64,000 nt of DNA, taken from positions 38,561 to 102,560 of the forward strand of contig JAZLDG010000074.1 of assembly GCA_045614565.1 (NCBI GenBank). Direction: 5' to 3'. Numbering within the stretch: the first letter of the stretch is position 1; every line of letters begins with the position of its first letter. Source of the DNA: Candidatus Scatosoma sp. GTDB lineage: Bacteria > Bacillota > Clostridia > Christensenellales > Borkfalkiaceae. Below are positions 3,351-48,806 of the stretch, in pieces. The notes under the pieces were generated by a model. It was not told the DNA's origin. It worked only from the letters and a program-made list of their open reading frames with translations, and did no database searches. A program made the position numbers and the translations under genes.

Positions 3351-4532
3351 TTATAATAAGCTGTCAATAAATTGCTCTGCGCATCTTGCCGAGCGGTTAC
3401 CCTTGCGAAGCGCGAAGGCTTCCGCTTTGATTTCCAGCTCCTGCACAGGAAGCGCGATACCGTGCTTTTGCGCCAGCTCACGTACGATTTCCAAATACAA
3501 CTGCTTGTTGGGTTTTTGGAACAGTACGACAAGCCCAAACCGTTCGGAAAGCGAAAGCGTTTCCTGCAAAGTATCGTTGATATGCACGTCGTCGCCGTCG
3601 CGGTCGGCAAAGCTTTCCTTGATAATATGCCGACGGTTACTCGTCGCGTAAATGACGGCGTTATCCGCTTTCGCACTCGCCGAGCCTTCCAACGCCGCTT
3701 TGAGCATACTGAAATTGTCGTCGCTTCTGTTAAACGCCAAATCGTCGATGAAAATAATAAATTTCAAGGGATTGCCGCTAATCTTGCCCATAACGTAGGG
3801 CAGGAGCGAAAGCTGATCCTTGCGAAGCTCGATCAAACGCACGCCGTCGTCGAAAAAGGCGTTTGCCACAGCTTTGACCGTGGACGATTTTCCCGTTCCC
3901 GCATCCCCGCAAAGCAAGGTGTTTGCCGCAGGTCTGCCTTCCACAAACGCGCGGGTATTAGCCACGACCGTTTCGCGTTCCGCTTCGTAACCGATAAAGG
4001 TATCCATACCGATTTTGTCCGCGCTGACGATCGGCTCGATGGTTTTTTCGTCGGACAAACGGAACATACCGTGCGACGAAAATATGCCGTAGCCGTACTT
4101 TTCAATCCCGCGAAGCCGTTTTTTATACGCGGCGTATAAATCAACGTTCGTGCTGTCAAAGGACGGGATTTCCCCTTCGTTCAAGCCCATATCCAAAGCA
4201 AAATCCAAGGGCTTCAACGAAGCGAACGCGGAAAAGCTTTCCAGTTCTCTTTTTACCGACTTTTCCACACAAGCCGCCGTTTTTTCGCCGTGGGCTACCG
4301 CTTTGATATACACGTTTTCGTCTTCAAAAATCAAGCCCTGCACACATTTGGTAAGCGATGCGCCGCGTTCGTATATCTCGGCAACGAACGCCGTGTACGC
4401 GCTACGCTTTTCCGACGCCGTTTCCGCGCGCATATACTGCGAAAACGCGGTAAGGAGCGGCTTTTTCGTCACGCGGATAAACACGCTCGAAAGACATAAC
4501 CGATCGTAAATTGTACGTAAATTTTTTTCCAT
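3351..4532 (-). CDS. DUF815-family AAA-type ATPase
   Basis: 393 aa with Walker A LLCGDAGTGKSS and Walker B-like FIIFIDDL. The overall layout matches the uncharacterised DUF815/COG2607 ATPases as I remember them. Confidence 0.7.
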   Translation of the reverse strand: MEKNLRTIYDRLCLSSVFIRVTKKPLLTAFSQYMRAETASEKRSAYTAFVAEIYERGASLTKCVQGLIFEDENVYIKAVAHGEKTAACVEKSVKRELESFSAFASLKPLDFALDMGLNEGEIPSFDSTNVDLYAAYKKRLRGIEKYGYGIFSSHGMFRLSDEKTIEPIVSADKIGMDTFIGYEAERETVVANTRAFVEGRPAANTLLCGDAGTGKSSTVKAVANAFFDDGVRLIELRKDQLSLLPYVMGKISGNPLKFIIFIDDLAFNRSDDNFSMLKAALEGSASAKADNAVIYATSNRRHIIKESFADRDGDDVHINDTLQETLSLSERFGLVVLFQKPNKQLYLEIVRELAQKHGIALPVQELEIKAEAFALRKGNRSARCAEQFIDSLL

Positions 4533-12887: not shown

Positions 12888-14546
12888 TTACAGCAATCTA
12901 TTGACTGCGGACACCAACGCCCGAACGGACGAAGTCATAATGTCTGTGTGTATCCCCGCGCCCCAAAACGGTTTTCCGTTTTCCACGATACAAATATACG
13001 AAGCCGCTTGCGAAGTCGATTTTTCTTCCAACGCGTGTTCGACGTAATTTTCAAGCGTATACTCTTTTCCCGTAACTTGCTTAATCGCGGTGCTTACGCA
13101 ATCGAGCCTGCCGTTTCCTTCCACTTCCACGGTCGTAGCCTTCCCCGCGTACTCGATCACGATCTTGCCCTTAATCCGTTCTGCGGAAACGTCTTGATAA
13201 CCCGCTTCCAAAACGTTAAGCTTTTCGGTAAGATTGACGAAATCCCGAATGAAAATGTCGTACACTTCTTTGGACGCAAGCTCTCTATGCTCGTGATCGG
13301 AAATACTCTTGACGTGATAGCCGAACTGTTCACGCATTTTGGGGGGTAAAATAAGCTTGAATTGCGTTTCGAGCACGTACCCGATACCGCCCTTTCCCGA
13401 TTGCGAATTGATGCGGATAACGTCCGCCTCGTATACTCTGCCCACGTCGGCAGGATCGAGCGGGAGATAGGGCACAGTCCAAGTATTTTCGTCCCTTTCC
13501 ACCCTGTATTTCATACCCTTTGCAATCGCGTCTTGGTGCGAGCCCGAGAACGCCGCGAACACAAGCTGCCCGCTGTACGGCTGACGCTCGCTCACTTTCA
13601 TTCTCGTCACTCGTTCGTACACCTTGGTAATCGCGGGCAAATCGGAAAAATCAAGCAACGGATCGACGCCTTGGGAATACATATTCAACGCTAGCGTCAC
13701 GATATCTACGTTCCCCGTGCGTTCGCCGTTCCCAAACAGCGTACCTTCGATACGGTCGCCCCCTGCAAGCAAGCCCATTTCGCTGTCCGCAACCGCACAG
13801 CCGCGGTCGTTGTGGGGGTGCAAGGAAATGACGACGTTTTCGCGGTTTTTCAGGTTTTTGCACATATATTCGACCTGACTTGCGTACACGTGCGGCATAG
13901 AATTTTCCACCGTCACGGGCAAATTGATAATCGCCTTATCGTCCGCCGTGGGCTGCCAAATATCAAGCACGGCGTTACAAATTTCCGCCGCAAATTCAGG
14001 CTCCGTACCCGTAAAGCTTTCGGGAGAATATTCAAAGGTGATTTTTCCTTCCGCTTGCTCACGGTATTTTTTACAAAGTTTCGCGCCCGTCACCGCAATA
14101 TCGATAATTTCTTTTTTCTCTCTCTTGAACACCTGCTCGCGTTGCGCTTTGGACGTGGAATTGTACAAATGCACGATCGCGCGTTTCGCGCCTTTGAGCG
14201 CGGCAAACGTCTTTTCGATGATATGCTCGCGGGACTGCGTAAGTACTTGAATGGTCACGTCGTCAGGAATCAAATTTCTCTCGATGAGCGCGCGGCAAAA
14301 TTCATATTCCGTTTCGCTCGCCGCGGGGAAACCCACTTCGATTTCCTTGAACCCGATTTGACAAAGCAAAGTGAAAAATTCAAGCTTTTCTTCCAAACTC
14401 ATCGGAATAATCAATGCTTGATTTCCGTCGCGCAAATCCACGCTACACCAAACGGGCGGTTTTTCAATCGCCGTCTTTTTCACCCAATCCATCGTTACGC
14501 CTTGTGGCGTGAAATATTGTTTCACGTATTTTTGACTGTTTCTCAT
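12888..14546 (-). CDS. leuA: 2-isopropylmalate synthase (long form)
   Basis: WCSVDLRDGNQAL...HPHNDRGCAVA...GERTGN motifs in a 552-aa protein. Confidence 0.92.
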   Translation of the reverse strand: MRNSQKYVKQYFTPQGVTMDWVKKTAIEKPPVWCSVDLRDGNQALIIPMSLEEKLEFFTLLCQIGFKEIEVGFPAASETEYEFCRALIERNLIPDDVTIQVLTQSREHIIEKTFAALKGAKRAIVHLYNSTSKAQREQVFKREKKEIIDIAVTGAKLCKKYREQAEGKITFEYSPESFTGTEPEFAAEICNAVLDIWQPTADDKAIINLPVTVENSMPHVYASQVEYMCKNLKNRENVVISLHPHNDRGCAVADSEMGLLAGGDRIEGTLFGNGERTGNVDIVTLALNMYSQGVDPLLDFSDLPAITKVYERVTRMKVSERQPYSGQLVFAAFSGSHQDAIAKGMKYRVERDENTWTVPYLPLDPADVGRVYEADVIRINSQSGKGGIGYVLETQFKLILPPKMREQFGYHVKSISDHEHRELASKEVYDIFIRDFVNLTEKLNVLEAGYQDVSAERIKGKIVIEYAGKATTVEVEGNGRLDCVSTAIKQVTGKEYTLENYVEHALEEKSTSQAASYICIVENGKPFWGAGIHTDIMTSSVRALVSAVNRLL

Positions 14547-40859: not shown

Positions 40860-41390
40860 TCATTGCAAGATTTTTACAAGTTCTTTTAGATTTTTTCGTT
40901 TCTTTGTGCGGAGCTTATCTTCGTCCTTGGCGTAACCCAAAATAATCACGAGCCGAACGGTGCCGTCAAGAGCGCAAATACTTCGTATTTCTTCGTCGTT
41001 GAGCCAGCCGAGAATACACGTTCCAAGTCCTTGCGCCGTCGCTTCCGCCGTGATATACGCCGTAACGATACCGATATCGATCGAACGGTAATCGTTCTTT
41101 TTTACCTTTGCGCCCACCCCCGCCGTTAGCGCGTACGGCTTTTCCAAAATAACCAACGCCACAGGCGCATCGGTGGCAAATTTGTTCATTCCCATTCCTT
41201 GCGTAGCTTTTTCCACCCTTTTTGCGATTTCCCCGTAACAAACGGTAATTTGATAGGGTTGACCGTTACAAGCGGACGGAGCAAGCCGCGCCGCTTCTAA
41301 AATGCAATCAATTTTGTCCTGTTCCACTGCGCGGTCGGGGTTATAACTACGGCAAGATTGCCTTGTTTTTGCTATTTCACTAAAATCCAT
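40860..41390 (-). CDS. nitroreductase-family protein
   Basis: RQSCRSY...ILEAARLAPSACNGQP, typical of the nitroreductase fold. Confidence 0.8.
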   Translation of the reverse strand: MDFSEIAKTRQSCRSYNPDRAVEQDKIDCILEAARLAPSACNGQPYQITVCYGEIAKRVEKATQGMGMNKFATDAPVALVILEKPYALTAGVGAKVKKNDYRSIDIGIVTAYITAEATAQGLGTCILGWLNDEEIRSICALDGTVRLVIILGYAKDEDKLRTKKRKNLKELVKILQ

Positions 41391-41411: not shown

Positions 41412-41455
41412 TGGTACTCCCGACGAGAATCGAACTCATAATTGTCCCTTAGGAG
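41412..41455 (-). pseudogene. orphaned 3' portion (44 nt, anticodon loop to CCA) of the host tRNA-Arg(CCU); attL-side junction
   Basis: Minus strand reads CTCCTAAGGGACAATTATGAGTTCGATTCTCGTCGGGAGTACCA. Its stems pair with the orphan 5' half at 48721..48758. Confidence 0.85.
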
Positions 41456-41682
41456 CACATCCAAACTGTTGATATAATTCTAAATTCTATGGATTAACCG
41501 TAATTTTATATATTTTATGGATATTTTTCTTTCAATAAAATGGATGTTGTAATAAATTATGGACGTTTCAAAACAACTTTTATTCTAAAATTATTCCTAT
41601 TTTATTCCAATTCACTTTTCCCTCCTCTAAAAAGTTATTAAAATCATTTTCAAAATTAAAAATCTAAATATTGGATTTTTGG

Positions 41683-41711
41683 TTGAATTTTTTAGATGGA
41701 TATGCTATAAT
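41683..41711 (+). promoter_or_regulatory. sigma-70-type promoter of the island cargo operon
   Basis: TTGAAT (41683..41688), a 17-nt spacer, then TATAAT (41706..41711), about 40 nt before the XRE gene. Confidence 0.6.
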
Positions 41712-41749
41712 AGTAAAAACTGATTTTTTATTAAGGATGGTGCTATAAA

Positions 41750-41956
41750 ATGGCTGTCAGTTATAAAAAGCTATGGAAACTTTTAATTGATAAGGATATG
41801 AAGAAAAAAGACCTTCGTATTGCTACGGGTATGACTACTACTGCGCTTGCAAAACTCGGTAAAAACGAACACGTAAACACCGAAATTTTGGCTAAAATCT
41901 GCAAAGTTTTAGATTGCAATATAGAAGATATTGTGGAAGTTGTAGATGAAAAGTAA
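41750..41956 (+). CDS. XRE/Cro-family helix-turn-helix transcriptional regulator (68 aa)
   Basis: KKDLRIATGMTTTALAKLGKNEHVNTEILAKICKVLDCNIEDIV is the classic short HTH (YozG/HTH_26-like) pattern. Confidence 0.85.
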   Translation: MAVSYKKLWKLLIDKDMKKKDLRIATGMTTTALAKLGKNEHVNTEILAKICKVLDCNIEDIVEVVDEK

Positions 41957-42023
41957 AAACTTTTATAAATATGACAAGCGTTGTCGTATTTAGCGTAATA
42001 AAATTAATTTTATAGGTGAAATA

Positions 42024-42677
42024 ATGGCAGAAATGGTCTCTTGGATGAATGATAACAATGGCTTTATAATGGGGCTTTTAACTTTGGTATATGTTATAGC
42101 TACTATTTGTATCTGTGTTTTTAATTATAAATCAGCGACTGCGGCACGTAAACAAACTGAAACCCAAATAAATCAATTTAATGCAACGAATCGCCCTAAT
42201 ATTATTCCTTGTTTTACAATGATAGAAGGTGCAATGTTTTGTTTAACCTTCAAAAATATAGGAAACGAATGTGCAAAGAATCTAAAAATAACGATTAATA
42301 AGGAATGGTTTAATTGCTTTGATGAAGCGTTAAAACAAAAACAAATGCCCGGCAATATGAAAGAGTCCTTGCAAAACGAATTTTTTCTTCCCCCTAACGA
42401 TGATATTAAATTTGTTCTTATGATTCCAGGGGATGGTACAACAATGTATCAAGAACTTAGTAAAGAAAAAATAAAAATTCATTTATCATATAATCGAAAC
42501 AATTCCCAAGAATCTTTTAATGATGATTTTGAGTTGGATTTATTGGCAATGGCAGGATTGATACTTGATAAATCAGACTTTATTAGAAAAATGGAAAAAC
42601 AAGAAAAGGCATTAAAAGACATATCGAAAAATATTAAAAGCGTAGAAAAAGCAATTGCAAAGGAGAAAAACTTATGA
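42024..42677 (+). CDS. single-pass membrane protein of unknown function (217 aa)
   Basis: N-terminal TM helix FIMGLLTLVYVIATICICVF followed by a ~180-aa soluble domain. RBS AGGTGA. The stop overlaps the next start (ATGA at 42674..42677). Confidence 0.7.
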   Translation: MAEMVSWMNDNNGFIMGLLTLVYVIATICICVFNYKSATAARKQTETQINQFNATNRPNIIPCFTMIEGAMFCLTFKNIGNECAKNLKITINKEWFNCFDEALKQKQMPGNMKESLQNEFFLPPNDDIKFVLMIPGDGTTMYQELSKEKIKIHLSYNRNNSQESFNDDFELDLLAMAGLILDKSDFIRKMEKQEKALKDISKNIKSVEKAIAKEKNL

Positions 42678-44767
42678 AAGTAGAAAAATATAGAGTTCTT
42701 GGAGAGTTAATTGAGACGAATAAACGTCAATTTGTTATCCCTGTCTATCAAAGAAACTATGATTGGGGAAAACAACACTGCAAAAAACTTTATGACGATA
42801 TTATTTCTGCATATGAGTTAGATAGATTTCACTTTATCGGTTCAATCGTTTATGTCGACCAAGGTGAAGAAAATAAAATATATAGATATTTAATAATTGA
42901 CGGACAGCAAAGAATCACAACACTTTTTTTATTGCTCAAAGCTCTTCTTGATTCAACCGAAGACGAAAACCTTAAAAAAGAGTTTGAAGATATTCTTTTT
43001 AATATCGACAAATATAATGACTTAAAACTAACAGACCAAACAAAAATAAAGTTAAAGCCAATCAAAAGCGATAATGACCAATTTATGCTTTTGATGAAAA
43101 ATGATTTGCAAGCGATTGATAGAAGTTCAAACATTTTTATTAACTATGACTATATGAAAAAGTTGATTTCAAAATCAAACGCATTAGGTATAACAACTAA
43201 AGATATTTTGTCAGGTATCAAGAAATTAACTTCAGCAGTCATTATACTTGACCCAAAAGAAGATGAACCACAAGTGGTTTTTGAGTCTATCAACTCAACA
43301 GGGTTAGACCTTTCTCTTGCAGATTTAATTAGAAACTTTATTCTAATGACTGATAAAAATCAAGAAAAACTTTTTGAAGACTATTGGATTAAAATCGAAA
43401 ATAATGTTGGGCAAAATAAAATGCCCGCCTTTATTACGGATTTCTTGCAGTTTTCTTGTCGTGAGATTGTTTCCACTAAAAATGCTTATATTGTCTTTAA
43501 AAACTATTTTAAGACAGAGAATTTCTCTAATGAACAAATGTTAGAAAAGTTATTGCATTATTCTGCTTTCTACAAGGCATTTTTAGGCAATGATACACAA
43601 ACATATTCTCACATCGTAAACAAAAAATTGGCAGGATTTAATGCATTAGACCAAGGGACTATATATCAATTTTTATTCCACATTTTCGACGATTACGATG
43701 CAGGCATTATTTCAATTGAAGATTTAGAAAAGATTGTTACGTTCTTCTTTAATTATTTACTCCGTAGAATTGTTTGTGGGGTTGGCTCTAATAGTTTAAG
43801 AGGACTATATAAAACTCTATACAATAGAATTTTTGCCGATAAAAAGAATTTGGAAAATTACTACGACTCTATTATTCAATTCTTCTTACAGTTGAATACA
43901 AAGGATGCAGTTCCTTCTGATTCAGCGTTTAAGGATGCCTTAATAAACACTGATATTTATAACAAGAAAAACGTTTGTAAATATCTCTTAAAATCAATAG
44001 AAGATATTGCAGAAGATGGAAGTGAAAGCAAAGAGATATTAGACGTTTCCACTCTTTCTATTGAACATATAATGCCGCAAAAACTTTCAGATTATTGGCA
44101 AACAGCGCTCGGCAATAATTATGCCAAAATACACGAAAAATACTTACATAATCTCGGTAACTTAACGTTAACGGGTTATAATAGTGAATTAGGACAAAAA
44201 ACTTTTGACGAAAAGAAGCAATTAATCATAGATAAAAACTCTCATATTGTTGCTCTTAACAAAGATGTTTTATCTCAAACTTCTTGGGGCGAAAAAGAAA
44301 TTAAAAATCGTGCAGACCGCTTAAGTGCTATTTTATTAAAGTTATTCTATATTGATAAGCCGCAAAAATATATTCAATTTCAAAATGATACGGAAAGGCG
44401 TTATTCGGTTGGAGAAAACTTCGATGCTACGGGAACTAAGCCAAACACTTGCATTTTCTTTGGCAATACCTTAACGGTTAGTTCTTATGCAGACTTATTA
44501 TCAAAAGTTATGGAAGTGTTCTATGATTTAGATAACGATGTAATAAATGAATTAGCGAATAAAAATTACAAGTTAGCAAGCGCATCAAGAACATATATTA
44601 CCCACGATGCTGAAAAATTAAGAAAAGCTGTTGAAATTTACGAAACAGGCATATTTTTTGAATCAAATTTAAGTGCAAATAACATTATTTCTTTCTTAAA
44701 GAGTCTTTTAGATGTGTTTGAGCTTGATTATACCGAACTTGTAATTTGTGTAGATTCTAAACAATAA
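42674..44767 (+). CDS. DUF262/DUF1524 (GmrSD-like) nuclease-family protein with extra C-terminal region (697 aa)
   Basis: N-terminal DUF262 motifs FVIPVYQRNYDWGK and IIDGQQRITTLFLLL. The C-terminal His-Me/DUF1524-like motifs are LSIEHIMPQ and HNLGNLTLTGYNSELGQKTF. About 170 further residues of unknown type follow. Confidence 0.85.
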   Translation: MKVEKYRVLGELIETNKRQFVIPVYQRNYDWGKQHCKKLYDDIISAYELDRFHFIGSIVYVDQGEENKIYRYLIIDGQQRITTLFLLLKALLDSTEDENLKKEFEDILFNIDKYNDLKLTDQTKIKLKPIKSDNDQFMLLMKNDLQAIDRSSNIFINYDYMKKLISKSNALGITTKDILSGIKKLTSAVIILDPKEDEPQVVFESINSTGLDLSLADLIRNFILMTDKNQEKLFEDYWIKIENNVGQNKMPAFITDFLQFSCREIVSTKNAYIVFKNYFKTENFSNEQMLEKLLHYSAFYKAFLGNDTQTYSHIVNKKLAGFNALDQGTIYQFLFHIFDDYDAGIISIEDLEKIVTFFFNYLLRRIVCGVGSNSLRGLYKTLYNRIFADKKNLENYYDSIIQFFLQLNTKDAVPSDSAFKDALINTDIYNKKNVCKYLLKSIEDIAEDGSESKEILDVSTLSIEHIMPQKLSDYWQTALGNNYAKIHEKYLHNLGNLTLTGYNSELGQKTFDEKKQLIIDKNSHIVALNKDVLSQTSWGEKEIKNRADRLSAILLKLFYIDKPQKYIQFQNDTERRYSVGENFDATGTKPNTCIFFGNTLTVSSYADLLSKVMEVFYDLDNDVINELANKNYKLASASRTYITHDAEKLRKAVEIYETGIFFESNLSANNIISFLKSLLDVFELDYTELVICVDSKQ

Positions 44768-44783
44768 AACAAAGGAGAAAATT

Positions 44784-45008
44784 ATGTTTGACCCAAATTG
44801 GTATTATAACCCTAACTGTTTTAATCCACAAGCTTACGCTCAAATGCAAGCGCAACAACAATATGAGCAAGAACAGCAGAAAGATGTATATAACGCAATA
44901 AAAGCCTATAGCGATTTTCTAGATGCAATGGAAAAGTTAGACCCTGCGCATAAGCAAGATGTATTTCGCGGTTGTTTTGTTGAGATTGCTAAACGTATGC
45001 ATTGGTAA
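44784..45008 (+). CDS. small Q/N-rich hypothetical protein (74 aa)
   Basis: RBS AAAGGAG 7 nt upstream. The sequence is MFDPNWYYNPNCFNPQAYAQMQAQQQYEQEQQK... No family recognised. Confidence 0.6.
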   Translation: MFDPNWYYNPNCFNPQAYAQMQAQQQYEQEQQKDVYNAIKAYSDFLDAMEKLDPAHKQDVFRGCFVEIAKRMHW

Positions 45009-45051
45009 TTTTACACACAAAAAAATTGGTAAATAATATAGGAGAAAAGAA

Positions 45052-45747
45052 ATGCCCTTTAGTGAAAAAACAAAAGAAGACGCAATGATAGCGTGTGGGA
45101 GACACTGCTGCATCTGTCATAAGTTTTGTGGCAATAAAATGGAAGTCCATCATATAACTCCACAAAAAGATGGTGGTGAAGACACATTTGAAAACGCTAT
45201 TCCCCTTTGCTTTGATTGCCACGCCGAAGTGGGTGCGTATAATACAAGTCACCCTAAGGGTGTTAAGTTCTCTAAAACTGAATTAAAGCGCCATCGCGAT
45301 AATTGGTATAAATGTGTTAAGCAAGGTAATATAACAAGCGATACAATTCCACCGATGAAATTATTGCGTGAAGAAGGATTTAAAGAAACCCCACTCGTTC
45401 GCATAACATCAGGAATACAACTATTAAATGCGTTGAGTGGTTGTTGTGGAGCTCAATATAATTACGAAGAACCCAAAACGAGAGAAGAAGCATCAATTAT
45501 AAGCGAATTTCAAAAAGAAATGGAATATTTATCGGATGCGGATTCTCTTATCGAAGAAAGCGAAAGAGTTCTAATAGGGTTTGACTTAAATGACTTAATA
45601 ACTAAAATGGATGAGAAAGGTTTTTGGATTTTTATAGGAAGAGAAAATCGCGTCTTAACGGGTGGCGTAATCAAAGAGCCTGAAAGTTTTCCGATATTAC
45701 ATATTTACATTCTAAAAAAAGACAATATAACAATTAAAAATTGTTAA
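45052..45747 (+). CDS. HNH nuclease-domain protein with uncharacterised ~140-aa C-terminal domain
   Basis: CGRHCCICH...MEVHHITPQKDGGEDTFENAIPLCFDCHAEV follows the CxxC...HH...N...CxxCH HNH zinc-finger pattern. RBS AGGAG. Confidence 0.8.
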   Translation: MPFSEKTKEDAMIACGRHCCICHKFCGNKMEVHHITPQKDGGEDTFENAIPLCFDCHAEVGAYNTSHPKGVKFSKTELKRHRDNWYKCVKQGNITSDTIPPMKLLREEGFKETPLVRITSGIQLLNALSGCCGAQYNYEEPKTREEASIISEFQKEMEYLSDADSLIEESERVLIGFDLNDLITKMDEKGFWIFIGRENRVLTGGVIKEPESFPILHIYILKKDNITIKNC

Positions 45748-45830
45748 AATCTTTACAAAAGTAGGCAGATTCCCAAGAACGTGGGCGTTTGCCTATTAAA
45801 TTTTCACAACTCAATATATCTACCCTATTT

Positions 45831-45863
45831 AGGCGAGTGGAATTTGTTCTACTTGCCTTTTTT
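45831..45863 (+). terminator. intrinsic terminator closing the cargo operon
   Basis: AGGCGAGTGG-aatttgtt-CTACTTGCCT, a 10-bp stem with two G-U pairs, followed by TTTTT. Confidence 0.65.
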
Positions 45864-46365
45864 ATGTCCTAAAATTGCTTTCGTGGTTGTTTTTTTAAAA
45901 ATTTTTCAGCATTATAAAGTAGATGGGGTTGCAAAATGCAAAAAAAGTCAGGGATATATAATAGGAGGGTTATTTTCGCTTAAAAAATTCAGCAATATAA
46001 AGTGAGTGGTTGTTTTTTAAGAAAAAAGTAAGGAATATATAGTGTAAGGACAAACAAAAATATAACCGCTTGGTGCGGTGCGGAAATCAAAAAATTGTAA
46101 GCAGGATAAGAAAACCGCACCAAGTTGCAAATTTTCCTATTTTACCAAGCAGGTAAAGGAAAATGCAACAGGTCGCAGTTTCGACTTTTCAAACAATCGG
46201 GAAACCCGATTTTTGCTCTACTCCCCACCACCCAAACATTAACCACAAGGAGGAAAAATTTTATGAAAAATATTTTAGATTTTTATTAAAAACAGCTTGA
46301 CTTTGTTTGTTGAATATGATATTCGTATTAATACGACAATGCACTACGGTTAAGGAGATTTCAAA

Positions 46366-46686
46366 ATGAAAGAATTAACGTTAGAAGAAGTAATGGAATA
46401 TCAGCGAACACACCCACCCGTTAAGCACGTTTACGGCAGATGGGGAAACTTAAAAAAGCAATACTTAATAGACACGGGCAAAGATTGGCTGATTGCAGAT
46501 TTACCCACCTATCTTCACGGTATTGATAAAGCTGCCGAACAAATTTGGGAAGTTATGAGAGAAAAACTCTTAAAGCGCCCCGAATATAAAAAGACGGGCG
46601 AATTTATGCACGACGTTAAAATTGAAACGGAAATCAAAAACCGTATTGACGAAGAAATCTTAACCGAACTTATTTACGTGGATTAA
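46366..46686 (+). CDS. TnpV-like transposon-associated protein (106 aa)
   Basis: MKELT..., a central basic region and the C-terminal EEILTELIYV resemble clostridial TnpV proteins as I remember them. RBS AAGGAG. Confidence 0.55.
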   Translation: MKELTLEEVMEYQRTHPPVKHVYGRWGNLKKQYLIDTGKDWLIADLPTYLHGIDKAAEQIWEVMREKLLKRPEYKKTGEFMHDVKIETEIKNRIDEEILTELIYVD

Positions 46687-46699
46687 AGGAGAAAACACT

Positions 46700-46930
46700 A
46701 TGAATAGAAAAGAAGATACACCTATTAGAATTAGTCGTAGAACATACGAAGAAAAACACAAAGTAGAACGCAAAAAACTCAATAAGGTTTGGGGAACGAG
46801 CATCCCCCGTAAAGATGCTGAAAAAATTGATGCTTTCTTATCAAGCAAAGGATTATCAAAGGTAGATTTGATAATGGCAGGCTATGCAACGTTGATTGAG
46901 CAATTTGAAAGCAAGAAAAGTAATGATTAA
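46700..46930 (+). CDS. small basic protein (76 aa), possible recombination-directionality or DNA-binding factor
   Basis: Lys/Arg-rich N-terminus. The gene sits between the TnpV-like gene and the integrase with gaps of 11-13 nt. RBS AAAGGAG. Confidence 0.5.
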   Translation: MNRKEDTPIRISRRTYEEKHKVERKKLNKVWGTSIPRKDAEKIDAFLSSKGLSKVDLIMAGYATLIEQFESKKSND

Positions 46931-46941
46931 GGAGGAATTAT

Positions 46942-48360
46942 ATGGCTTATTTCAAAATAAGCACGGATAAAAAAGGAAAATTAAAAGCAAAAATACAAGC
47001 GCTTGGCAGAGACCCCGAGACGGACAAGCAAAAGGTTTGTTATAAATTGGTTAAAAACGATAACGACCTTACCCCGGCCAAGTTTCATAAGTACGTAGAA
47101 AAATGCGCTATTGAGTTCGAAGAAGAACTTGCAAAGGCTTATGAACTCAAAACCGACGTTAAAAAGTTGAAAGTTTTGACTTTTGACGAACTTGCAGCCG
47201 AGTGGCTTGAAAGTGTTAAAAAGAATTGGTCTATCAACTACTATTTAAGGGGAATTGGTATCACCAAAAAGTTTAGCGATTACTTGAAGAACAATAGACT
47301 TGCAGATAAACCCGTGAGTGAAATTACGGTTAGGCACGTTCAAATGTTTTTGAATAGTTTTGAGCAGAAAAACGGCAAACAAGACAACACTGTTTGCCTT
47401 AAAAAATACTTTCCAAACTCAATCAGTTTTAGAGCACTTGCAAGGGATAACGTTATAAATCGTTGTTCGTCATACGGACTTAAGAAAAAAGGCAATTACA
47501 TACTTCGTGAAACGGCAGAGAAAATTTGCGAAATTCACAACCTTGATTTCGACGAATATTTTAAGCCTAACGAAAGAAACAAAGCCTATTCAGCCGAAAC
47601 CATTAAAGGTTATAGAAGATTGCTTAGAACAGTATTTAACGAAGCCGTAAGATACGATTGGATAACGAAAAATCCCGTATGCGCTACAAAGGTTGGCTCA
47701 GGCAATAGCAACTCATCGCTTCGCCCCGTCAACGAAAAGGAAGTTTACTCAATAGCCGAAGCGCAAGAATTTATGAAAGCGCTTGACGAACTTCCCGAAG
47801 ATTTGATTTATAAGCGTGTACCGATAAAGTTTATGCTTCTTACGGGTGTGCGTGCAGGTGAACTTAACGGACTACGTTGGTCGGATATTGATTTTGACAA
47901 GCAAGTGGTTCATATTCGCAGAAATCGGCTTGTGGCGAAAGGTTACGGAATCTATGAGAAAGAACCCAAGACAAAGACTTCCACTCGAGATATACCCCTT
48001 CCAACGCCTTTAATTGACGATTTGAAGGAATATCGTGAGTGGTTTAGAGTAATCGACGACGAGTTTGATAATAATGTGGACGAATACTATTTTGCCGTCA
48101 ATATCTGCCGTGAACCCGTCTATCCACATACGGTTGGTGGTTGGCTTAAAAAGTTTCAAGACGACAAAGGTTTCAAGCGAGTTTGTTGTCACGGACTACG
48201 CCATACCTATTGCAGTTTGCTATTATCGCAAAACGTTCCCTTACAAACGGTTAGTAAATATATGGGACATAGCGACTCAACCATTACTTTGCAGGTTTAC
48301 AGTCACTTTATACCCGACACACAAGAAAAGGCGTTAAATGCACTAAATAACCTATTTTAG
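46942..48360 (+). CDS. int: tyrosine-type site-specific integrase
   Basis: N-terminal SAM-like/core-binding region plus a catalytic domain with LTGVRAGEL (Arg), HGLRHTYCS (H-x-x-R) and GHSDSTITLQVYSH (His...Tyr). Confidence 0.9.
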   Translation: MAYFKISTDKKGKLKAKIQALGRDPETDKQKVCYKLVKNDNDLTPAKFHKYVEKCAIEFEEELAKAYELKTDVKKLKVLTFDELAAEWLESVKKNWSINYYLRGIGITKKFSDYLKNNRLADKPVSEITVRHVQMFLNSFEQKNGKQDNTVCLKKYFPNSISFRALARDNVINRCSSYGLKKKGNYILRETAEKICEIHNLDFDEYFKPNERNKAYSAETIKGYRRLLRTVFNEAVRYDWITKNPVCATKVGSGNSNSSLRPVNEKEVYSIAEAQEFMKALDELPEDLIYKRVPIKFMLLTGVRAGELNGLRWSDIDFDKQVVHIRRNRLVAKGYGIYEKEPKTKTSTRDIPLPTPLIDDLKEYREWFRVIDDEFDNNVDEYYFAVNICREPVYPHTVGGWLKKFQDDKGFKRVCCHGLRHTYCSLLLSQNVPLQTVSKYMGHSDSTITLQVYSHFIPDTQEKALNALNNLF

Positions 48361-48372
48361 GAATAAAAAATT

Positions 48373-48409
48373 GGGATACCCACTTGATTGTGGGTATCCC
48401 TTAATTTTT
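48373..48409 (+). terminator. intrinsic terminator after the integrase
   Basis: GGGATACCCA-cttgattg-TGGGTATCCC followed by TTAATTTTT. Confidence 0.7.
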
Positions 48410-48507
48410 GTCTATGGGTGGATATAGTGGAATAGTTCAAAATTATTCCAAAAATGCCCGTTTTTTGCCCTAAAAATAGTAAAAAACCACAAAAAATGTG
48501 GTTTTTT

Positions 48508-48582
48508 TGGTAGTCCCTGCGGGAATCGAACCCACAACTAGCCCTTAGGAGGGGCTTGTTATATCCATTTAACTAAGGAACC
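48508..48582 (-). tRNA. island-borne complete tRNA-Arg (anticodon CCU), CCA-encoded
   Basis: Minus strand reads GGTTCCTTAGTTAAATGGATATAACAAGCCCCTCCTAAGGGCTAGTTGTGGGTTCGATTCCCGCAGGGACTACCA. It folds as a 75-nt cloverleaf with anticodon loop CTCCTAA. A hairpin with a T-run (48482..48507) follows it. Confidence 0.88.
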
Positions 48583-48720
48583 AAAATGGATAAAATTTAT
48601 TTTATTTTTATTCCTAAAATTATTCCTAAAACTTTTTAAGTCTTAAAAAGTGGCTATTTTCACTCGTTTTTACCATAAAAAGCATTGATTTTAGATATAT
48701 TAGACGGATAGACCAAGCGT

Positions 48721-48758
48721 TTAGGAGGGGACTGTTATATCCATTTAACTACGGAAGC
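48721..48758 (-). pseudogene. orphaned 5' portion (38 nt) of the host tRNA-Arg(CCU); attR-side junction
   Basis: Minus strand reads GCTTCCGTAGTTAAATGGATATAACAGTCCCCTCCTAA. Its acceptor and anticodon stems are complementary to the 3' fragment at 41412..41455. Confidence 0.85.
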
Positions 48759-48777
48759 ATACTATATAATTTTAATT

Positions 48778-48806
48778 ATTATACCGAAAATTACGTTTTT
48801 TTGCAA
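48778..48806 (-). promoter_or_regulatory. host tRNA promoter left upstream of the truncated tRNA
   Basis: Minus strand reads TTGCAA (48801..48806), a 17-nt spacer, then TATAAT (48778..48783), about 20 nt before the tRNA 5' end. Confidence 0.6.

Follow-up and report, generated by a model that had tools for sequence, protein, structure and literature searches.

How does a bacterium keep a working copy of a tRNA when an integrating island has cut the gene that encodes it? According to the textbooks, an island that enters a tRNA gene mends the cut gene by bringing along its 3' end. A 64-kb stretch of DNA from Candidatus Scatosoma sp. (contig JAZLDG010000074.1; hereafter the window, meaning the whole stretch analysed) points to a second solution, in which an island of 7,265 bp, lying between the two halves of a host tRNA-Arg(CCU) gene, very probably splits this gene without rebuilding it and supplies an intact cognate tRNA of its own. 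The original prediction for this locus was that the element splits the host's AGG-decoder gene and replaces it with its own, and the split halves, the intact island tRNA and the recurrence of the arrangement in other hosts all speak for that proposal.

ARAGORN detects exactly one tRNA in the window, the complete tRNA-Arg(CCU) carried by the island (Table 1), which scores 60.7 bits against the Rfam tRNA model (gathering score 29), and it calls neither island junction as a tRNA. On the minus strand, the end of a gene coding for 1535 amino acids (aa) is followed by a promoter-like site, an orphan tRNA 5' half, 138 nucleotides (nt) of AT-rich DNA, the complete tRNA and a terminator-like hairpin. 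The orphan 5' half consists of GCTTCCGTAGTTAAATGGATATAACAGTCCC followed by the anticodon loop CTCCTAA (48721..48727); laid out by its successive parts it reads GCTTCCG TA GTTA AATGGATA TAAC A GTCCC CTCCTAA, and its likeness to a tRNA ends right after the loop, at 48721. At the far end of the island, a second CTCCTAA leads into an orphan 3' half (CTCCTAA+GGGAC...GGGAGTACCA), whose segment 41412..41448 pairs with the 5' half at 7/7 positions of the acceptor stem and 5/5 of the anticodon stem, and the rejoined host halves make up a 75-nt tRNA. This rebuilt host tRNA differs from the island tRNA at 13 of its 75 positions (2, 7, 27, 28, 42, 43, 45, 48, 51, 61, 64, 65 and 70). Twelve of these differences form six compensatory pairs (2:70, 7:65, 27:43, 28:42, 48:64 and 51:61), and the remaining one, at position 45, lies in the variable loop. 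Standard pairing is seen in all 21 stem pairs of either molecule, while the two possible host/island chimeras have three and four broken pairs. Every coordinate and count in the original prediction proved correct, from the completeness of the island tRNA and the position-by-position comparison with the host tRNA to the co-oriented orphan half 138 nt upstream and the TTGCAA-17-TATAAT site preceding that half.

The insert between the two CTCCTAA copies (41456..48720) has a guanine-plus-cytosine content of 0.28-0.40, against 0.42-0.52 in the flanks. Its left junction, attL (GTCCC-CTCCTAA-ACGCTT), and its right junction, attR (GGATGTG-CTCCTAA-GGGAC), are identical only over the 7-bp anticodon loop, and the attP site predicted from them is GGATGTG-CTCCTAA-ACGCTTGG. 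The island DNA that adjoins the core (ACGCTTGGTC...) is not tRNA-like, and the 3' tRNA segment of a canonical attP is absent from it. An exact 13-mer, GGAATAATTTTAG, is found in one orientation at both island ends, at a distance of approximately 100-130 bp from the core: on the left it lies at 48614..48626, within the arm-type-like repeats AGGAATAATTTTAGGAATAAAA of the 138-nt spacer, and on the right in a similar repeat (Table 1). A degenerate third copy of the GGAATAATTTT repeat lies between the tRNA and the integrase gene, at 48437..48449. This layout is as expected for arm-type sites and would thus place the island tRNA inside the attP arm, if the repeats have the role presumed for them. 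Beyond the window, the right end is conserved in two relatives (L004 and L005, ACAGTTTCAATGTG-CTCCTAA), where it adjoins different host 3' halves.

From these junctions, we infer attP x attB recombination by the island's tyrosine integrase. In the mechanism that we propose, the integrase would have recombined attP with the host tRNA-Arg(CCU) gene, the two sharing only the 7-nt anticodon loop CTCCTAA, a core so short that the host gene would not be rebuilt. The host 5' half and its promoter would have remained at one junction, with the 3' half displaced to the other, 7.3 kb off. The island would compensate with its complete co-oriented tRNA-Arg(CCU), 138 bp inside its left end, between the presumed arm-type sites and with a terminator of its own. 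An intron was also considered as the source of the split, since group I introns occur in the anticodon loop of some bacterial tRNAs; we rejected it, the 7-nt loop being duplicated at both ends, the insert encoding an integrase and no Rfam intron model matching.

A canonical tRNA-targeting island would require that the tRNA on the integrase side be a host/island hybrid and the upstream '5' half' an unrelated pseudogene. Islands in tRNA genes usually take this form (Islander, PMC4383910), and the tRNA has its 3' end turned towards the integrase gene here as it does in a canonical attL. However, it is with the 3' half lying 7.3 kb off that the orphan 5' half forms perfect pairs, and not with that of the island tRNA, and the behaviour of the same element in other hosts is equally at odds with a hybrid. 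Elements of the window type, with integrases 96-97% identical, were found in eight further copies (L001, L005, L006, L008, L044, L081, L082 and L083), in which the tRNA together with its 138-nt spacer is nearly invariant, while the 5' half beyond the junction differs each time. This combination of a constant tRNA and spacer with variable 5' halves in different contexts indicates that the element carries the whole gene and leads us to discard a hybrid of a host 5' half with an island 3' fragment, making the canonical arrangement extremely improbable for this element. An identical island tRNA stands behind different host halves in four of these copies (L001, L005, L006 and L008), and the 5' halves ahead of window-type copies include one completely different type of tRNA-Arg(CCU) with another D-arm (GTTCGTG...TTCGC). 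In all, this tRNA and its 138-nt spacer were met behind nine different junctions in other genomes and metagenomes; eight of the 5' halves there come from hosts, and the ninth, in L044, from another family element. In L082 and L083, the element tRNA, approximately 145 nt past the junctions at 13718 and 2686, respectively, has C2:G70 in place of G2:C70, and such a compensatory swap in very close relatives is a signature of selection on a working tRNA. In two of the copies, a further 0.5-0.7 kb that the window lacks separates the integrase gene from the island tRNA (L006 3105..3812 and L008 11438..11981). The former also has a tRNA-like 5' fragment, GCTTCCTTAGTTAAATGGATATAACA, at 4296..4340 on the minus strand, which leads into the palindrome AAGGAGCTCCTTT and not into an anticodon stem-loop; it may be the remnant of another insertion or a rearranged junction.

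The arrangement extends well beyond close relatives of the window element. A search profile built from the integrase and 17 homologues yielded 172 confirmed loci in species-representative genomes, of which 80 were kept, nearly all of them from metagenome-assembled genomes of gut Clostridia or of Christensenellaceae type; 74 were informative in having enough sequence after the integrase gene. A tRNA-Arg(CCU) lies downstream of the integrase gene in 53 of these 74 loci, on the opposite strand within 1.5 kb in 42 and further downstream in 11. In addition, a structure-aware scan of every CTCCTAA recovered 49 complete tRNAs with an orphan 5' half ending in CTCCTAA approximately 170-320 nt upstream. 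One divergent locus is particularly instructive: in L080 (12388..12640; integrase 52% identical), an orphan tRNA-Arg(UCU) 5' half ending in CTTCTAA is followed, approximately 150 nt on, by a complete tRNA-Arg(UCU), in the host context of a tRNA-Gly(UCC)/tRNA-Arg(UCU) operon. As judged from these sequences, the target and the cargo tRNA were switched together to Arg(UCU), and of the indirect evidence that the carried tRNA makes up for the cut one, this joint switch is the strongest. The tRNA might instead have been captured once, from a former host, through aberrant excision; we rejected this as the immediate explanation, as the arrangement is kept down to 52% integrase identity; it may be the ancient origin of the arrangement.

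The same survey bears on a different role for the island tRNA, namely that its main use is to decode rare codons in the AT-rich genes of the island, or to stand in as a spare or decoy when anticodon nucleases attack, with replacement of the host gene being incidental. AGA and AGG together account for 33 of the 63 Arg codons in the island genes and for 62 of 372 in the window's host genes; phage tRNAs have also been discussed in relation to tRNA-cleaving defences (PMC10865867). Nevertheless, the excess in the island is almost entirely of AGA (29 codons), which a CCU anticodon does not read, with AGG occurring only four times, and in every case the carried tRNA corresponds to the target that was disrupted, the switch to UCU included, which argues for compensation. 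We thus hold such a purpose to be quite improbable as the main one.

The element tRNAs also have the properties of working molecules. We compared 30 distinct tRNA-Arg(CCU) sequences, 29 from the integrase loci and the rebuilt host gene of the window, counting pairs from a parse of each sequence by cloverleaf geometry; a MAFFT alignment of the set was not used for this purpose because its gaps fell inside stems. Standard pairing is found at 629 of 630 stem positions, despite two to six pair types per position, and U8, the TTCGA T-loop and the encoded CCA are conserved, with G18, G19 and A20 invariant. A20 is a major identity element for arginyl-tRNA synthetase. This pattern is the signature expected of selection on the element tRNAs as working tRNAs, and agrees with the earlier suggestion that both the host and the island gene of the window have evolved as functional tRNAs with the same anticodon. 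The island tRNA is presumably expressed and charged, and is presumably needed by the host. A comparison of host halves with elements suggests what is gained by carrying a whole gene: in hybrids of a host 5' half with an element 3' half, at least three stem mismatches would arise in 32 of 45 distinct pairs, and one or two in seven more. An element that brings the entire tRNA is freed from matching the stems of its host, and the tRNA-Arg(CCU) genes of very different hosts thereby become usable.

Several observations weigh against the replacement of the host gene by the island-borne one. Exact-protein look-ups of the flanking nitroreductase and of the window integrase gave no empty site; no excised circle was found, the attP junction ATGTGCTCCTAAACGCTTGGTC being without a match in viral contigs; and the left-junction sequence, scanned against metagenomes, recovered three further integrated copies and no attP. 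The host genes of the window make little use of AGG (12 of their 372 Arg codons, or 1.6 per 1000 codons), so the need for its decoder may be weak. In 21 of the 74 informative loci no tRNA-Arg(CCU) lies downstream of the integrase gene, some of these being short contigs and others belonging to a subfamily with the integrase gene at the other end or showing no more than an orphan 3' half; the architecture, though common among family members, is therefore not demonstrated for all of them. Finally, the minimum-energy structure of an in silico fold of the 294-nt read-through precursor is not a cloverleaf, a result that is weak either way, as tRNA folding in vivo is poorly predicted from long precursors.

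Some of the loci that depart from the window arrangement have an organisation of their own. In L014 (approximately 11504) and L066 (approximately 12229, minus strand), the integrase homologue is followed by an orphan tRNA-Arg(CCU) 3' half only, joined through CTCCTAA to unrelated DNA, as would be expected if another element had entered the element's own tRNA. In L013 (approximately 11500, minus strand), the 5' side of a tRNA is present up to the end of the sequence, and the tRNA may be complete. A subfamily with 60% identity (L017 5076, L018 12609, L019 5245, L020 12128 on the plus strand, and L031 20928) has the integrase gene at the other end, pointing at the orphan host 3' half; its members share one right end, ...GAATGAGGGTATAA-CTCCTAA, next to host 3' halves that differ. 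These elements have no complete tRNA within 10 kb upstream, and would thus be long or differently organised. In L079 (4960..5034; 52% identity), the element adjoins a tRNA-Glu(CUC) that has a good promoter, and no orphan 5' half is apparent; this may be a canonical restoring arrangement or the use of another target.

It was further suggested in the original prediction that, should the island tRNA-Arg(CCU) be the only one in the genome, loss of the island would be costly and would stabilise it in the manner of an addiction system; on this reading, the island makes itself indispensable by destroying the sole AGG decoder of its host. The host gene is indeed non-functional while the island is present, and in the phage precedent integrants cannot survive unless they have the element tRNA (PMC10865867); but what that precedent establishes is a requirement upon integration without the tRNA, and not upon loss of the element. 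In the window, both host halves are undecayed, perfectly complementary and flanked by identical 7-bp cores, so that integrase-mediated excision would be predicted to regenerate the host gene exactly. In many bacteria, moreover, tRNA-Arg(UCU) can read AGG. Together with the rarity of AGG, this leaves the addiction-like stabilisation without support, and we consider it unlikely. In L044, one orphan half looks decayed, and over long times excision may cease to restore a working gene. A slower ratchet is therefore conceivable, in which excision no longer restores function once a half has decayed.

Which promoter serves the island tRNA is a question on which the evidence divides. The putative host promoter has a perfect -10 element and ends 19 nt before the host 5' half, and a terminator scan of the window found no terminator-like site between it and the island tRNA. 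Orphan halves and complete tRNAs are co-oriented wherever both are found, and terminator-like sites occur in only 3 of 48 distinct stretches of orphan half plus spacer, as against 36 of 47 stretches downstream of complete tRNAs. Alternatively, the replacement may be real with the tRNA driven from within the 138-nt spacer, the host promoter being irrelevant and the co-orientation merely a product of the asymmetric core. Spacers elsewhere in the family do contain good candidates: TTGACA-17-TATAAT in L011 and L012, TTGTCA-17-TATAAT in L072, TTGCAA-17-TAAAAT 9 nt upstream of the tRNA in nine loci, and, in CTGCCTG-type elements, TTGCAA-17-TAAAAT or TATAAT 9-10 nt upstream. Further, 17% of spacers score 10 or more as against 3% of shuffles, and the tRNA of phage Fionnbharth has a demonstrated promoter of its own (PMC10865867). 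In the window, the best internal candidate is the weak TTAAGA-16-AATAAT (48646..48619, minus strand), which matches the consensus at only 9/12 positions compared with 10/12 for the host site; its non-canonical -10 belongs to the arm-site repeat and its -35 coincides with the one part of the spacer that varies, though close relatives of the window element read TTGATA-16-AATAAT (10/12) at the same place. Overall, the tRNA would be expressed by read-through from the host promoter, from a weak internal promoter or from both. For this element, we see the chances as evenly balanced that read-through is a major contributor, and exclusive use of a spacer promoter as a serious contender that falls somewhat short of an even chance.

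The same candidate -35 is overlapped by an inverted repeat of the form T5-N7-A5 (CTTTTTAAGACTTAAAAAG, 48632..48650, minus strand), whose 7-nt centre has two main alleles (AAGACTT-like and GATAGAT-like) amid approximately 130 nt that are almost invariant in the eight copies. It could be a protein-binding site or the footprint of another recombination. At the other end of the island, the host nitroreductase gene (40860..41390, minus strand) begins 21 nt past the orphan 3' half with no terminator-like site between them, and may have been co-transcribed with the tRNA before the insertion; the island now puts 7.3 kb between this gene and the tRNA promoter.

In several loci, stacks of two or three orphan 5' halves stand above a single complete tRNA (L044 14797..15590, L035 2873..3473, L027 16493..17133 and L042 1805..2157). 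The order in L044 is an e04-type tRNA half, a window-type left end leading to a window-type tRNA half, and then the spacer and complete tRNA of a third element; the half mentioned above that looks decayed is the outermost. Evidently, members of the family insert into each other's tRNA genes. We tentatively propose, as a possibility that we regard with some doubt, that these islands bring about the horizontal replacement of tRNA genes in gut Clostridia, by way of a ratchet and not of acute addiction. The integrase would need little beyond the 7-9 bp loop C-CTCCTAA-G, so that any tRNA-Arg(CCU) could be a target, including those of resident family members; successive elements would nest, the orphan halves would decay over time, and the element tRNA behind the host promoter would become the permanent AGG decoder of the lineage. 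If true, this would explain the very different types of tRNA-Arg(CCU) scattered among related hosts. Gene trees of tRNAs in gut Clostridia may partly reflect the traffic of elements.

The remaining content of the island (Table 1) is predicted to be that of an integrative defence island that is neither a phage nor conjugative. The integrase residues R304, H417, R420, H443 and Y453, corresponding to the R, H-x-x-R, H and Y of the family, are invariant in the family alignment, and the closest solved structure is the Tn1549 integrase (6emy; E 4e-17 over residues 210-461). The TnpV-like protein and the 76-aa open reading frame (ORF) are, by their position, candidate excision or directionality factors. 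In the cargo, the N-terminal (DUF262-type) and C-terminal (HNH-type) domains of GmrSD are united in one protein, which is matched by the Orf5 and HEC-06 models of PADLOC (2e-126), consistent with a putative type IV restriction function. The island is not a temperate phage: its ORFs encode the integrase, TnpV, helix-turn-helix (HTH), GmrSD and HNH proteins, and family searches of the island ORFs gave no match to virion, lysis or conjugation families. No relative of the integrase family above 26% identity is found in IMG/VR. Weak Rfam matches (trpB motif, rimP leader and ycf2) fall below their gathering scores and were taken as chance.

Table 1. Features of the island and its junctions in the window, in order of position.
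Feature	Coordinates	Strand	Basis
attR: core copy CTCCTAA (41449..41455), then orphan host 3' half to CCA	41412..41455	-	Sequence, direct repeat, pairing, parse
Island right end, with arm-type-like repeat GGAATAAAATAGGAATAATTTTAGAATAAAA (exact 13-mer 41585..41597) and terminal ACAGTTTGGATGTG next to core	41456..41640	-	Sequence, repeat search
Cro/C1-type HTH regulator	41750..41956	+	Pfam HTH_26, 6e-19
Cargo block: 217-aa unknown protein, GmrSD-type enzyme, 74-aa ORF, HNH nuclease	42024..45747	+	Pfam, PADLOC
GmrSD-type (type IV restriction-like) enzyme	42674..44767	+	Pfam GmrSD_N 2.4e-34, GmrSD_C 3.1e-25
HNH nuclease	45052..45747	+	Pfam HNH 4e-10
TnpV-like small protein	46366..46686	+	Pfam TnpV, 31.3 bits
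76-aa ORF directly upstream of integrase gene	46700..46930	+	No family match
Tyrosine integrase, 472 aa, converging on island tRNA	46942..48360	+	Pfam Phage_integrase 6e-23, SAM-like domains
Terminator-like hairpin and T-run right after island tRNA	48481..48507	-	Scan
Complete island-borne tRNA-Arg(CCU), CCA encoded	48508..48582	-	ARAGORN, Rfam, 21/21 standard stem pairs
Island left end, 138-nt spacer from crossover to island tRNA	48583..48720	-	Sequence, promoter scan, repeat search
Orphan host tRNA-Arg(CCU) 5' half, positions 1-38 (attL junction)	48721..48758	-	Sequence, direct repeat, structure-aware parse
Host tRNA promoter-like site TTGCAA-17-TATAAT	48778..48806	-	Consensus scan, 10/12

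A combination of a short core with a complete spare tRNA has practical consequences. A plausible payoff for the element is that it can enter hosts whose tRNA-Arg(CCU) genes differ too much for a hybrid to fold. Island finders that seek displaced 3' fragments with long blocks of identity will misplace the borders of such elements, and cassettes of integrase gene, attP and tRNA could be used as broad-host integration vectors for gut anaerobes that are hard to engineer.

Sublocation classes for islands and prophages in tRNA genes, including crossover in the anticodon loop, were reportedly set out by Williams in 2002. Like the canonical islands (Islander, PMC4383910), the present one uses a tyrosine integrase and a crossover within the 7-nt loop of the anticodon, with the symmetric stem on either side, and it has the integrase gene by the tRNA end and a host 3' fragment displaced to the far end. 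In canonical islands, however, the part of the tRNA between the crossover and its 3' terminus adjoins the core and regenerates a hybrid gene; the junctions of the present island are identical over no more than 7 bp, a 5' half stays behind as an orphan, and the element brings a whole gene as a separate unit. The integrases of Tn1549/Tn916 type provide the closest solved catalytic and core-binding part (6emy), and the TnpV-like gene nearby is a further point of resemblance; but these conjugative elements use many AT-rich sites with non-homologous coupling sequences, while the island family is site-specific for one tRNA loop, has an identical 7-bp core and lacks conjugation genes.

The nearest parallel is the tRNA-dependent lysogeny of actinobacteriophages such as Fionnbharth (K4), LeBron (L), Gaia (X) and others, in which a tyrosine integrase uses an attB within a tRNA gene, with a core of 8-17 bp and no rebuilding of the tRNA, and in which integration without the cognate phage tRNA was shown experimentally to be lethal (Guerrero-Bustamante and Hatfull, mBio 2024, PMC10865867). 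The island displays four of the six defining features of this system (a tyrosine-family integrase, an attB in a host tRNA gene, a core too short to rebuild that gene and a tRNA-Arg(CCU) of its own); being a temperate phage is not among them. It further resembles these phages in the putative arm-type sites that flank attP, in the very short core (7 bp in the island) and in an element tRNA that shares the anticodon of the host tRNA with a diverged sequence, and it resembles Gaia in the position of the tRNA just downstream of the integrase gene. It differs in being a 7.3-kb non-phage defence island of a gut Clostridia-type genome, known here from sequence alone, in targeting tRNA-Arg(CCU) with a core that is exactly the anticodon loop, and in that family members nest in each other's tRNAs, leaving stacked orphan 5' halves. 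The tRNA of Fionnbharth lies elsewhere, antisense to a protein gene and with a proven promoter of its own (PMC10865867), whereas that of the island lies in the attP arm, 138 bp from the crossover, and is co-oriented with the split gene, so that it would land directly behind the host tRNA promoter. Outside Actinobacteria, the discussion in the same paper presents prophage Lj965 of Lactobacillus johnsonii as a likely case; as far as it is described there, this is likewise a Firmicutes element with a junction tRNA reportedly not rebuilt and a cognate tRNA encoded but, unlike the island, a prophage. Searches of open-access text gave no description of the arrangement for non-phage islands or for gut Clostridia. 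Thus, the principle, demonstrated experimentally in actinobacteriophages in 2024, is published, and what appears new is the scale on which gut bacteria show it and the form that it takes there: the window and the 80 surveyed loci suggest that small, non-phage defence islands of gut Clostridia form a large family built, as standard, on a short core coupled to a complete spare tRNA.

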